From positions 112,840,001 to 112,904,000 of the forward strand of contig OZ024741.1 in assembly GCA_964016885.1 (NCBI GenBank): a DNA stretch of 64,000 nucleotides, read 5' to 3'. Positions within the stretch are counted from its first letter, which is position 1. Every line of letters begins with the position of its first letter. Origin of the DNA: Eledone cirrhosa. Taxonomy: Eukaryota. Below are positions 4,738 through 49,611 of this stretch, one piece after another. A program made the translations under genes and the position numbers. Under the pieces are notes generated by a model. It ran no database searches and was not told the origin of the DNA. It saw only the letters and a program-made list of their open reading frames with translations.

Positions 4738-4784
4738 ACGGCAACGAACACTGTTTCTGGGTTATTACACTTCATCAGTACCGT
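4738..4784 (-). ncRNA. Candidate (degenerate) type-I hammerhead ribozyme
   Basis: Minus strand: acggt-a-CUGAUGA-a-gugu(aaua)accc-a-GAAA-c(agtgttc)g-UU-gccgt. Stem I acggt/gccgt, weak stem II. Confidence 0.45.
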
Positions 4785-5029
4785 ATACTGACATAGCTTA
4801 CTGACTTGGCTTAAGAAGCTGTTTGCATGACTGCAAACAAATCGAATATTATTATTAATATTCGAAAAACTCAGATTTACATTTCTTATATATATATATA
4901 TATATATATACATTACATACACCATGGATTTCTGCTTTTTCTGTCCATGAAATTTCCTTCACAGTGCATTGGTCAAGCTGGGGTCATATAATAAGACACT
5001 TGTGTGTGTGTGCTAGATTTCTATCATTA

Positions 5030-5270
5030 ATGATGGTGAGTTTTTTAGTTGTTTGGTGAACAGCACAACCTGCTCATGAAATTAACATAAATGTGGACGA
5101 GTATTCCAGAGACATATATACTCAGCCTAGTTCTCAAAGAGATTCAGTGTAACCCAGTTGTATGACATGGCTGGCCTTTTAAACTATATGTACAATCCTT
5201 TTTTATAGCTGTATAAATTTGAGCAAGGTAAAGTTGAAGAAAATGTTTTGCTGAAGGATCCAACATTCCA
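5030..5270 (-). mobile_element. Decayed second SINE family (tail homologous to 52480-52660 and 29880-30420)
   Basis: acctgctcatgaaattaacat...gagtattccagagaca is the reverse complement of the ctcagccacttgcacactaatttcacaagcagg motif seen at 30346-30380 and 52570-52605. Confidence 0.55.
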
Positions 5271-6130
5271 ATAGAAATCAAAGCATGTTTATAAATGCAA
5301 GAAACTGTATGCCATACTTACAGAGTTTATTTCTTTGTTTGGAGCTGATGATTCGCTTTAGTGCTACACTGTTTTGTGCAACAATATGTGTGGATATGTA
5401 GGTGAGAGAGAAACTGCATACTATATGCAATCTGAAGACGCTTGAATATGTGTCTGAGTTATACATGTATTATGAAGGCCAAGAATATGGATGCTTCTTG
5501 TGAATCTGAAGTGAGATTTATGTTAACATATTCTCCTTCTCAATCCTTATTTTTCATAGGAAGGCAAAGAAAATATATGGATTTTTCATTCTTTGTTGCA
5601 GTAAATTATATATGAATAGGAAATAATATACATTTTCAGCCTGCTTTGCATTGAATTCATAATGTAATTCTAATAATAAATTCGCCTCTACTACCTTTAG
5701 AGTGTGTGTATATGCATAAGTGTGTATGCAAATATAAACATATGTATATTAGTAATATAAACATACATACACACATACACATACATAAATTCATATATAT
5801 ATATATATATAGAGAGAGAGAGAGAGACACACATATATATATATACACTCGCATATGTACACACACACATGCCTTTATATTATCATCCTCATATTTCTCT
5901 GGAAGCATTGCAATTGGAAACATCTACTCAAACATTTGTGCACGTTTCTTATATTTATGTTATTAAGGTAACCAAAAACTATCTTGCTGAACAACATAGT
6001 TATGTTTATTATTTGTCAAACAGATTATTATACGAATAGATAATACAGAATTTATTATACCTCCCAACTGTTTTTCATTTTGATTTTTATCTTTGTTCTT
6101 GTGTTCTTTTTTAACACATACCATCATCAC

Positions 6131-6220
6131 CTTCTTCTTCTTCTTCTTCTTCTTCTTCTTCTTCTTCTTCTTCTTCTTCTTCTTCTTCTTCTTCTTCTTC
6201 TTCTTCTTCTTCTTCTTCTT
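6131..6220 (+). repeat. (CTT)30 microsatellite
   Basis: Perfect trinucleotide run. Source of the poly-K/L/F pseudo-ORFs. Confidence 0.98.
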
Positions 6221-6815
6221 CTCCATCATGGAGCATTGGGCAATGAGAGATTTCTATTCTGCATCATTGCAAGCATTATAATGGTTCTGCTCCCAGGCTA
6301 AGTACCATCTGCTCATTGTTTCTGTAGCAATTTTGATTAATAGAGGTAAGGTTATTAACATTACACTTCATCCTCCCTTCTCATCACAGGCTAAAAACTA
6401 ACCCACGATTTAGAAGTAATTGGGGCCGTCTGTAACCCTGGAGAGGGGCCCATTTCAAGTAATGTTAGCCAGAATCAGCTGAGTCCAATATTGAATTAAT
6501 TTTCTTTAAATTGTTTAACATACTTCTGGAAGTAGTTTCATATTAAATTCCTTCTTTTGAAATTACATGTGCCCACTCACATACACTCACCATTTTACCT
6601 CCTTTGAATTACAGGTGCACATATGCTCCCCACACATACCATATTATGATTATGTACTATCCAATTTCCATTCCATTCCATGGGCTCTAAACTTCTGATA
6701 AGTGTGCCATCATGACATATGGCATGTCTCGGCCATTTAAACTTGCTGGAGTCCATACCTCTTCTTGTCTGAATACAGTTGATTTCTTCCATAGAAAGAG
6801 AGAGAGGGGGGAGAA

Positions 6816-6975
6816 AGAGGAAAAATTGACCCCAGTACTGGATTCCTATTTGCTTTATCAAACTTGAAAAGTTGGAAGACAAAGTTGACTTGGTGAGATT
6901 TGAACTCAAAGAGCCAGATAGATATTGCAAAGCTTTCCATTTGATATTCTTATGATTCTGCCAATTCACCACCCA
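6816..6975 (-). mobile_element. Decayed SINE (main family)
   Basis: gaccccagtactgg...aaagttgacttggtgagatttgaactca...ctgccaattcacc. Confidence 0.7.
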
Positions 6976-46958: not shown

Positions 46959-47702
46959 ATATATATATATATATATATATATATATATATATATATATAT
47001 ATATAATCATCATCATCATTGTTTATCATCCATTTTCCACACTTGCTTGGGTTAGAAAGGTTGTCATGTTATGATTTGTATTTCATGGATTTGAATTTCA
47101 GCTTCATTGCTATGGCTGGATGCCCTTTCCATTGTCTACCTCATGTCACAGGATGGCCATCATACAGGGTGGACTAGGAGCTTTTTGCTTTTTGCTGTGT
47201 CACTAGTATCAGTATCTTATGCACACGCACACACACACATATATATACACAAATGCGAGGAATCAAATATGTTAGAATTTTGTACTTCTCAATAAACAAG
47301 CTCAATAGACTTTATGTTTAGCGAAGTCACATCATGCAACCTTCAGCATGGTGAGATTTATCGGATTTAGCTCTGGATATTGGCAAGTATATTGTTCTAT
47401 GTACTATTTTTGTACCTATATTTCTCTTAGAATGGTGAACACTATAACACTGATGGGTATTCTTAATCTCCTGTAGTTTAATTATAATCAATAGTTTGTG
47501 ATCTATAATCGATTACCTAGATTGATTTTAAATTCAGTCTACGGAATACGTAATAGCGCTATAGGGTCTCTACTGATTCCATCTTGAGTACATATTCTTC
47601 TCTGAAATATGTATTTAGTATATATATATATATAATATATTGTGTATTCTCTACGTTATGTGGTTCTTTCTCTCTATATATACATATATCTTTTACATTT
47701 GA

Positions 47703-47860
47703 TATCATCATCATCATCATCATCATCATCATCGTTTAACGTCTATCTTCCACGTCAGCATGGGTTAGATGGTTTTGTTCCAGTGAGAGCAATGTTGAAT
47801 TCCTTGGGATTGATACCAGTGAGCTGGGACTCCTACTTAAACTTACCTATAGTAATAATT
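47703..47860 (-). mobile_element. RTE-type 3' terminal fragment
   Basis: (CAT)n cgtttaacgtc...ccacgtcagcatgggttaga. Confidence 0.7.
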
Positions 47861-47886
47861 ATCTAGATACATATGACCTTAGCAAC

Positions 47887-49367
47887 ATGTGCCCTACAAG
47901 ACCAGCAAGAGGCAGACCACCTACCATTACCTCAATGGCCAAGAAAACCCACACAGATAGATGGAACGGGTGGACCAGAGCCATACGGACCCCCGAAAAC
48001 CACGATGAACTAAAGAAAATGATTGCACATGCGGTGGGGGCCAGCATAAAATTAACCCTTAAGGAACATATGTTCAAATTTAATGGAAAAACATATGCCC
48101 AAGAGGAGGGAGCAGCCATTGGTGTTAGCATTGCAGGCGACATAGCTAACCTATTCATGGTATGGTGGGACAGTAGACTTAAACTTAAACTTAAAGAACA
48201 ATTAGAAGACCCCTTAACCCTGTAATGTACTCCCACTATGTTGATGATATAAACATCGTAGTTAAAACACCCCACTAGAGAACAGTCAGGAACTAGAGAA
48301 AAACACAATGGAAAGCATCCAGCAAATAGCTAACTCCATCCACCAGAGTATTAGAGTTACTATAGACTACCCAAGCAAACACCCCAACCATCGATTACCC
48401 GTACTAGACACAGAGCTCTGGTTAGATACCATTAATAACAAAAAACAAATCCTTCATTCCCATTATGCCAAACCCATGACTTCCAAATATCTGATCCACC
48501 GAAACTCAGCTGTTTCGGACCATACCAAAATCAACATACTGATTGCGGATTTGGTACGGGGTGATGAGAAACGTGTCCCGCATGTGCAACCCCGAAGAAC
48601 TAGAGAGACACATACAACACTTCATCCACCGTATGAAGTTCTCTGGTTACAATCAGAGAGATAAAATCAGAGTGTATAGAGGAGCCAGAACCAAATGGGA
48701 AAAAATGGTAAATCATGACACAAATGGGACCTGCCCCTTGTATAGGAGTAAATTTTGGAATAGAATAGAAAGAACTAGGAATAAGGCTAATAGAATAAAC
48801 TCATGGTATGATAGCAATAAATACCAGAGTGTAATGTTCATCGATACAACCCCTAGAGGTGAATTAGCTTACAAATTTAGAAGGGCCCTAGATAAACATA
48901 AACTCAATATTAAGATAGTAGAAAGACCAGGTACCTCCATAAAAACACTTATTAGCAAGACATACCCTTTTCAAAGACCTCCCTGTATAGATAAGAAATG
49001 TATAATCTGTAAATTAAGCCCCCATATTAACTATAAAACTAGAAATGTAGTATATAGCATAAGATGTACTGAAGGACAATGTAGAGATAAAAATATAGTG
49101 TACATAGGTGAGACAGCTCGTAGTATAGGGGAACGGATAAATGAACACTCGCGAGACCTTCAAGATAGTAAAGAATCATCTGTACTCTACCAACATGCTA
49201 AAATAGAACATAAGGGTAAATTAAAGAACATAGAAATAAAAATAGAATCTACACACAGAAAAGACGCAATGTTTAGACAAATCACAGAGGCAATAAACAT
49301 AAATGAACTCCAACCAAAATTAAATAGAAAACATGAGTGGAACAGCAACATCACAACTTACAATTAA
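47887..49367 (+). pseudogene. Penelope-like RT + GIY-YIG endonuclease (frameshifted)
   Basis: FKFNGKTYAQEEGAAIGVSIAGDIANLFM, YVDD at ~48237, LPVLDTEL, C..C..C..C linker, NVVYSIRC...YIGETARSIGERINEH, RQITEAINI...PKLNRKHEW. Confidence 0.92.
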
Positions 49368-49568
49368 GGACAAAATGAAAACACACACGCACATAGAACA
49401 AACAACCAACCAGTAACATGTAAGTAAACAAATAAATAAACAAATATAAACACACACAGACACCCGGATGTGGCGCATGCACAGACTGAGCACACAACAC
49501 ACACACGGAAACAAGATGGCATAGGACAGAACAAAGGAGAGGCACAAAAACAAAGAAAGGAATCCCCA

Positions 49569-49611
49569 GTCACTGAAGAGGTCACAGAATGTGTGACGAA
49601 AGAACTTTGAC
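49569..49611 (+). ncRNA. Type-I hammerhead ribozyme of the Penelope pseudo-LTR
   Basis: guca-CUGAAGA-g-gucac(agaaugu)gugac-GAAA-g(aa)c-UU-ugac, 200 bp downstream of the GIY-YIG stop and on the same strand. Confidence 0.85.

Follow-up and report, generated by a model that had tools for sequence, protein, structure and literature searches.

Hammerhead ribozymes (HHRs) of Penelope-like elements (PLEs) have been described as folds with a short stem I, a longer stem II, an extra base after A9 and a palindromic or absent stem III, occurring as many families per genome and mostly as single motifs or opposite-strand pairs 100–700 bp apart; self-complementarity of stem III is regarded as a mark of dimeric cleavage (Cervera and de la Pena 2014, PMC4209133). 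The Hydra clade of PLEs, defined by RW[KR], DKT and CxCX5C motifs and by CxxC/CxH around the endonuclease (EN), has a C-terminal GIY-YIG domain, a (TA)n target and a 3' HHR (Craig et al. 2021, PMC8557442); for one member, Hydra-1_Obim from Octopus bimaculoides, target and HHR are given in the supplement to that paper. In vitro, the protein of a green anole PLE (the Poseidon element PAc) nicks both strands of AT-rich DNA, and reverse transcription begins at two internal sites, which define the tail (Frangieh et al. 2024, PMC11167929). Animal non-LTR retrozymes, by comparison, are non-coding and low in GC, with one type-I HHR per head-to-tail unit and copies of more than unit length (PMC7229834; bioRxiv 10.64898/2026.07.22.740005). 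Here we analyse hammerhead motifs in a 64,000-nucleotide stretch of Eledone cirrhosa DNA (assembly GCA_964016885.1, contig OZ024741.1, positions 112,840,001 to 112,904,000; the window), for which an initial annotation had proposed several families of non-coding ribozyme cassettes.

The five well-formed motifs of the window very probably represent minimal type-I folds in the 3' ends (pseudo-LTRs, pLTRs) of five coding PLE families, present as truncated or inverted copies at TA repeats and likely to cleave only as dimers or with protein assistance, in tandem master transcripts. This core finding is a known arrangement that matches published PLE biology and is unsurprising to a specialist. The motifs share with the hammerheads of PMC4209133 the features of fold and distribution listed above, and differ in that a U4C core is fixed in two families, a change not among the variants we found described there.

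Five hammerhead folds and their parent elements

All five folds that the initial annotation called well formed were recovered at the claimed sites, with cores starting at 19446+, 19751-, 27667-, 40638- and 49573+ (position and strand, used as names below). A strict descriptor detects three, whereas dinucleotide shuffling (two sets, 60 shuffles each) yields on average 0 and 0.03 motifs. A relaxed descriptor, broadened only after the five folds had been seen, gives exactly 5 in the 64-kb window; for 100 block-shuffled versions the average is 0.01. The CUGANGA ... GAAA ... UH core in type-I order, claimed for all five, stands for four; 40638- is not strictly CUGANGA because its core is CCGAAGA (U4C). 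The G10.1-C11.1 pair is present in 19446+, 19751- and 49573+ and absent from 27667- (U.U) and 40638- (C.C). Core-adjacent stem I is just 3–5 bp long in four of the five motifs (in 40638-, 3 bp are followed by an internal loop and then 7 bp), and stem III is short and palindromic in four.

An Rfam check of the whole window gave no hammerhead among the 150 matches listed of 169, and none was found at gathering score in 4 loci, or in three short stretches; the best match was to Hammerhead_1 (RF00163) at 18580–18664, with 20.2 bits against a gathering score of 34 bits. For minimal motifs such scans carry no information. Separately, all high-ranking Rfam miRNA matches in the window were dismissed as artefacts of inverted-repeat hairpins and TA runs, and a core-like match at 20599+, within a frame resembling the end of an RTE element, was rejected for having no stem I by any descriptor.

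Chance matching in AT-rich, repeat-rich DNA does account for three weaker candidates (5345+, 32803- and 47345-), but as an explanation of the five named folds it can practically be dismissed. Against it stand the count of 5 versus 0.01 in the window and that in sixty evenly spaced 10-kb stretches chosen blind (600 kb, 46 of the stretches on C1–C4), which hold 51 motifs in 24 stretches compared with 0–1 in 10 shuffles. Covariation, one of the checks that had been suggested for these folds, also speaks for structure. When blind-picked sequence was selected on core and stem II only (72 hits, against 5–7 in three shuffles), 13 of 28 clusters paired a stem I of at least 4 bp with their own 3' flank, compared with 5.2% for swapped flanks (permutation mean 1.8, maximum 9 in 5000). 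Two-sided change was seen in 15 of 16 pairs of an 18-row alignment, which leans towards structure because its rows were picked by a pairing descriptor, and in which two misaligned rows were left; a second alignment, with 49573+ misaligned, was left out of the count.

The motifs belong to multi-copy families, with 188, 2693, 2215, 2934 and 1970 candidates at first look for the five (40 scored per family) and 93–100% identity among full-length rows. Each family extends upstream, with variable 5' truncation, into its own reverse transcriptase (RT)/GIY-YIG open reading frame (ORF). In the 27667- family, RT and C-terminal GIY-YIG lie in genomic locus L112, which has 1.7 kb, running from GIY-YIG to the HHR, in common with L111 and L113; the 19751- family has RT in L117, which shares sequence with L118–L120, and an EN that L117 and L120 have in common. 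L114 and L115 likewise share sequence that links ORF and HHR region. The 40638- family is the most complete: L256 reads (TA)n, inverted truncated copy, partial pLTR/HHR, ORF, HHR, ORF, HHR, (TA)n, with a tandem unit of 4.2 kb in which the ORF begins about 245 nt past the cleavage site. Upstream of the 19446+ family lies a Neptune-type EN end, in L084 and in a 76% identical relative, L174; an RT piece beside this family in L121 and L122 is one duplicated locus (99.6% over 4.9 kb) and was counted once. For 49573+ the window's own ORF directly precedes the hammerhead, which lies about 200 nt past its stop codon.

By these ORFs, three of the families are Hydra-clade, one is Neptune-like and one has an unusually long RT insertion. 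RW[KR], DKT, CxCX5C, CxxC and CxH motifs occur in all three Hydra families, 27667-, 19751- and 40638- (RWK with DKT in L112, RWR with DKT in L117 and L256), and the C-terminal GIY-YIG has a CxCX5C linker and CxxC/CxH in L112, L114, L117 and L256. The RT4 motif was compared by eye with supplementary figure S1 of PMC8557442 and the Neptune layout with figure S2. These families agree with the published clade also in the (TA)n target, the 3' HHR, and the U.U at the base of stem II and the U at H17, both of which appear in its table. They differ in unit length (4.2 kb with a 1.2–1.7-kb 3' untranslated region, against a published, non-diagnostic tendency to less than 3 kb) and in tails of about 95–160 nt rather than 30–40 bp, and their HHR sequences are unlike those of Hydra-1_Obim (PMC8557442). 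With the Neptune clade the 19446+ type shares a long zinc-finger linker before the C-terminal GIY-YIG upstream of the HHR (L174, with the EN end also in L084), although here only partial copies were recovered, assigned by motif alone.

The PLE of 49573+ has a short CX2-5CxxC linker before its C-terminal GIY-YIG, both in the window ORF and in most of 32 homologues (31 from ENA), and an RT3–RT4 interval of about 130 aa in the window and 128–132 aa in 29 of the 32 homologues with both motifs found, compared with about 60 aa in the canonical rows of figure S1 (PMC8557442). Craig et al. report such insertions only for clades with N-terminal EN and sporadically for Coprina (PMC8557442). An assignment to Nematis was rejected, as the linker fits but the RT3–RT4 insertion conflicts with the clade criterion; this lineage may be an undescribed clade. 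Its closest named homologue is an Octopus vulgaris protein with 70% identity, and a protein-atlas search with the RT returned just unnamed or RVT_1/HTH_animal clusters. A DKS motif accompanies the conserved interval in this lineage, which includes L126 and L127. We also observed that the 49573+ and 27667- families, although unrelated, agree in many copies over a run of 15 bases that covers the core and the beginning of stem II, a likeness that may reflect convergence or module exchange.

The initial annotation is borne out in holding that these are multi-copy minimal type-I hammerheads of PLE type, that they are associated with (TA)n and that PLE RT/GIY-YIG proteins spread them. Its further proposal, that the five named copies are independent non-coding cassettes (retrozymes) mobilised in trans by a protein like that at 47.9–49.4 kb, appears very unlikely. 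Most copies are indeed short and lack an ORF, non-coding ribozyme units exist in this genome, and in the 27667- family many 5' ends fall near a palindrome that precedes the cleavage site by about 168 nt; all five families nevertheless extend, variably truncated, into ORFs of their own, and none has a fixed short head-to-tail period (upstream direct repeats in 11/25, 3/27, 1/22, 0/15 and 1/9 hits, with varying periods). The term solo pLTR fits loosely, for truncated 3' ends; the term retrozyme-like does not fit the five motifs, which have no short head-to-tail unit, and applies instead to a family at 18237–18810 that the initial annotation did not list. The 27667- palindrome is an octamer at which many copies stop or fold back; transcripts may start there, or it may be a hot spot of snap-back.

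Insertion anatomy and ribozyme activity

Copies of five families end at two fixed distances past H17 (56/151, 52/148, 47/205, 152/208 and 152/228 nt), the short end being 47–56 nt in the three Hydra families and 152 nt in two others; for the 19446+ family a second end was not established. Where central ends could be classified, (TA)3 follows within 14 nt in 123 of 144 (28/30, 46/49 and 17/19 in the Hydra families, and only 13/26 in a 463-nt family described below). Among 150 loci, 71 have no partner arm, 66 are pairs of one short and one tailed arm, 5 are pairs of the same type and 8 are unclassifiable pairs, so that a tail is carried by exactly one arm in 66 of 71 classifiable inverted pairs.

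The blind sample gives the same picture of (TA)n enrichment: the next (TA)5 lies within 160 nt downstream of 33/51 motifs and upstream of 10/51, against a background of 14.7%, and within 5 kb a head-to-head partner is present for 25/51 and a direct partner for 2/51. The statement that the motifs lie mostly in short islands inside (TA)n applies fully to 27667- only, as 19751-, 40638- and 49573+ sit in element ends of 0.9–2 kb. AATAAA does occur at stem I of 19751-, 27667- and 40638-, and the TA run reported to follow it is found about 50 nt later in two of these; the window copy of 40638- instead continues into its own tail and has no TA run there. A role of AATAAA as poly(A) signal was considered, given its enrichment downstream (25/51 against 3 upstream and a 1.8% background), and dropped because in many families the hexamer consists of H17 and the 3' strand of stem I, and the ends abut (TA)n.

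These structures are what would be expected if the element's own protein nicked both (TA)n strands and started reverse transcription at two internal RNA sites, with a separate priming site for each strand and head-to-head joining of the resulting cDNAs. Early truncation would then yield the short islands, and most dispersed copies, having no same-strand partner, would be passengers. PAc resembles these elements in its two RT start sites with optional tail, AT-rich target and HHR just upstream, but its HHR overlaps the start of the ORF, which in L256 begins well beyond the cleavage site (PMC11167929). The rule of one tail per inverted pair is counted here and not in the PAc study as far as its account goes.

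Stem III is fully self-complementary in 27 of 36 clusters. With so few same-strand partners lying within 5 kb, dimers in cis are beyond the reach of most copies, though not of tandem loci like L256. An alternative that we consider less likely is that the conserved RNA folds are mostly no longer catalytic and serve as protein-binding or RT-positioning signals before the two RT starts. Pointing this way are the spread of a young family with U4C and a second family with the same change (5/51 sampled hits), the short end at 47–56 nt past H17 in all three Hydra families, copy ends that do not clearly pile up at the cleavage site, and the finding that HHR mutants still insert in vitro (PMC11167929). 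Yet some 36 divergent clusters retain the core letters and the palindromic stem III, the short end lies at 152 nt in two other families, dimeric or protein-assisted cleavage has been demonstrated for other PLE HHRs (PMC4209133, PMC11167929), and U4C, which lowers hammerhead activity in vitro, supports viroid infectivity in vivo (PMC3088659). The second CCGAAGA family has a loopless stem III and is found at L183:764–826, L191, L195 and L207.

Several points weigh against reading the five motifs as working ribozymes at the ends of coding PLEs. Folds of the monomers by minimum free energy (MFE) are unexceptional (z -0.7 to -2.6), and that of 19446+ differs from the hammerhead. U at H17, which is expected to lower hammerhead activity, occurs in two named families; another named family combines U4C with the 10.1–11.1 mismatch, and in the 40638- family U4C is carried by 738 exact 20-mers against 21. 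Since the 5' ends of copies form no clear peak where cleavage is predicted, it is not evident that cleaved RNA serves as template, and in the anole PLE the protein assists HHR cleavage in vitro but insertion does not need it (PMC11167929). As to parentage, a complete unit was observed in one family only (L256), the ORF link of 19446+ comes from 2 loci, of which one is the relative with 76% identity, the clade assignments are based on motifs and not on a tree, and Pfam returned a single GIY-YIG match, below cutoff, on 8 ORF pieces. About 7 insertions were counted twice in the 150-locus tally, once per arm.

A 463-nt non-coding element with Penelope-like insertion marks

Two hammerheads that the initial annotation lacked, 18586+ and its inverted twin 18543-, belong to a 463-nt family with 1925 candidates. 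In a genomic copy at L269 the unconstrained fold is the three-way junction (-25.6 kcal/mol), and in the MFE fold of the window copy stems I and III are kept and part of the core is paired. L280 carries two HHRs 463 nt apart as a dimer, and the unit runs head to tail because the element's own tail lies upstream of the HHR. At 30 loci mapped by eye, matches fall on the 463-nt unit and wrap from its end to its start, with a direct arm of at least one unit in 10/30 and an inverted arm in 21/30; at most two HHRs stand in direct tandem, and one direct pair occurs among the 100 listed of 107 exact 32-mer matches. No shared ORF was found upstream of the element in 20 loci, and the longest open frame has 54 codons. 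Many contigs carry dispersed copies, which show the tail, the fold-back and the TA ends. Contigs from 4 runs match the unit (1088 and 26 records for organism A, 1 each for organisms B and C), which is silent on expression; likewise, the sequencing runs listed for window positions 48300–49810 included none of RNA and so speak neither for nor against expression there. Short head-to-tail units were also noted in two further hammerhead families, whose periods are about 467 and 420–496 nt (L196:4700–6300, L238, L198, L033, L214 and L027).

Judged by its sequence, the 463-nt element behaves as a non-LTR retrozyme would, and its copies show the insertion marks of PLEs. It would likely be mobilised in trans by the PLE route, from multimeric or circular RNA freed by its own monomer-type hammerhead. 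It agrees with the animal non-LTR retrozymes in being non-coding and low in GC, with one type-I HHR per head-to-tail unit and copies longer than a unit, and differs in occurring as one to two units folded back at (TA)n rather than as arrays, and in its PLE tail, two-end signature and 8-bp stem III (PMC7229834; bioRxiv 10.64898/2026.07.22.740005). We consider it improbable, if less so than the cassette proposal for the five named motifs, that the unit is instead the end of a longer, unsampled coding PLE or a satellite spread at the DNA level: this would suit the single direct pair among the exact matches listed, and the evidence comes from 30 loci only, but the wrapping of the unit from end to start, the direct arms of a unit or more, the lack of a shared upstream ORF and the dispersal with tail, fold-back and TA ends all argue otherwise.

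Co-occurrence and pLTR trees have been used to argue that retrozymes originate from PLEs (Li, Clavereau and Pollet 2026, bioRxiv 10.64898/2026.07.22.740005), and according to a 2020 review no motif in animal retrozymes reveals their mobiliser (PMC7761336). In the literature we found no description of tail and fold-back marks on a retrozyme.

Other features of the window and genome-wide abundance

Features discussed here are collected in Table 1. Half of the six candidates listed as decayed (4778-, 17947+ and 19245+) are damaged members of real families. In the 19245+ family, which is related to 19446+, better-kept copies have a different yet complementary stem I; in the 4778- family, L133 is periodic at roughly 400 nt and L136 has a GIY-YIG ORF upstream. 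The other three fall away as hammerheads: 5345+ and 32803- are single-copy and match no descriptor, and copies of the repeat around 47345- show a plain hairpin there, without GAAA. That repeat (47250–47700) is older, 75–87% identical to other copies, with 730 candidates and a PLE-like fold-back and tail, and has a canonical hammerhead on neither strand. A hammerhead missing from the initial annotation, 2341-, belongs to a family that L313 connects with a Hydra-type ORF piece, one also present in L310.

Table 1. Hammerheads and parent elements in the window (positions of the window;. denotes both strands)
Feature	Position	Strand	Remarks
Hammerhead	2258..2346	-	60-nt stem II region; in fold-back insertion ~2125-2547
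Decayed hammerhead	4738..4784	-	stem II and U16.1 lost; fold-back insertion ~4590-4891; family intact in other copies
Decayed long-stem-II hammerhead	17941..18039	+	H17 is G here; fold kept in other copies
Fold-back insertion of 463-nt element	18237..18810	.	minus arm with tail and weakened hammerhead (core 18543); plus arm untailed
Hammerhead	18577..18666	+	9-bp stem I, long stem II, 8-bp stem III, GUC triplet; predicted monomer type
Decayed hammerhead	19241..19280	+	older family related to 19446+
Neptune-like PLE 3' end, 5'-truncated, with 19446+ hammerhead	19343 to about 19560	+	
Minimal hammerhead	19442..19477	+	4-bp stem I, extra A, 4-bp stem II, loopless palindromic stem III, GUU triplet
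Hydra-clade fold-back insertion	19657..20570	.	minus arm 19657-20417 untailed, plus arm 20406-20570 with ~95-nt tail, TA runs at both ends
Hammerhead	19701..19763	-	12-bp stem I, AUA triplet; in long arm of Hydra-clade fold-back insertion
Smallest Hydra-clade fold-back insertion	27565..27712	-	made up of the pLTR end and ~15 nt of inverted tail end, surrounded by (TA)n
Hammerhead	27618..27672	-	5-bp stem I, U.U at stem II base, palindromic stem III, AUA triplet
Hydra-clade PLE 3' untranslated region and tail, 5'-truncated	40391..41260	-	full 4.2-kb tandem unit in L256
Variant hammerhead	40584..40656	-	U4C core, C.C at 10.1-11.1, 7-bp stem II, GUA triplet
PLE, 5'-truncated, frameshifted	47781..49812	+	RT, C-terminal GIY-YIG (ORF ends 49367), 3' untranslated region, tail, then (TA)n
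Minimal hammerhead	49569..49611	+	4-bp stem I, extra G, 6-bp stem II, CUU triplet

The window also holds long near-perfect inverted repeats at 13850–14061 and 33987–34094, both centred on (TA)n, and at 2812–3233 and 45145–46958. Four RTE-like LINE copies, 88–95% alike and 5'-truncated, end in short (GAT)n/(ATC)n (23232–27433 on the minus strand, 35456–37290 and 59764–61253 on the plus strand). A Ty3/gypsy-like LTR retroelement at 53048–57565 (+) has 255-bp LTRs of 92.5% identity and gag, pol and integrase split across several frames. A very frequent 190-nt SINE-like repeat (1306–1498, 8100–8290, 11354–11556, 18804–19003, 31255–31454, 41381–42019, 59371–59765 and others) is tandem at 41381–42019 and often stands exactly at the untailed end of PLE-type insertions, and a 43-bp minisatellite at 61724–62629 comprises 21 copies with 96% matches.

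The density of hammerheads in the window (5 in 64 kb, at 35% GC) is typical of the genome. The blind sample corresponds to about 85 motifs per Mb, and 45 of its 51 motifs remain when a strict core and a stem I of at least 4 bp are demanded. Extrapolated to the 3.0-Gb AT-rich genome this gives 255,000 motifs (bootstrap 155,000–369,000), or 268,000 when stratified (155,000–409,000), estimates that are conservative because the descriptor misses long stems II and III. Among published counts, obtained with other descriptors, the axolotl has 126,247 and a coral more than 6,000 (PMC7229834), whereas Xenopus tropicalis has 9,000 and the coelacanth 4,000 (PMC4209133). The estimated total of about 250,000 therefore exceeds the highest published count that we found (126,247); larger ones, or the U4C variant, may stand in supplements or other surveys. 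For cephalopods, the only paper we found bearing on the subject was that of Craig et al. 2021 (PMC8557442), and in its main text a 2026 repeat annotation of Octopus vulgaris uses neither the word hammerhead nor ribozyme (PMC13282606).

On balance we lean, with some reserve, towards the view that no animal genome on record is richer in hammerheads than this one, its roughly 250,000 motifs falling into dozens of families, and that it shows retrozymes caught in PLE mobilisation, a 463-nt self-cleaving, circularising non-coding RNA being copied more than once around by PLE proteins and inserted at TA microsatellites with the tail and fold-back marks of PLEs. If this is true, the 463-nt element would name the machinery used by animal retrozymes, its PLE marks complementing the phylogenetic argument of bioRxiv 10.64898/2026.07.22.740005. 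Because only one arm of an inverted pair is tailed as a rule, the inverted structures of genomes can be connected with the two starts of reverse transcription observed in vitro. The genome itself provides dozens of natural variants (U4C, U17, the 10.1–11.1 mismatch, long or absent stem III) that bear on whether PLE hammerheads must cleave.

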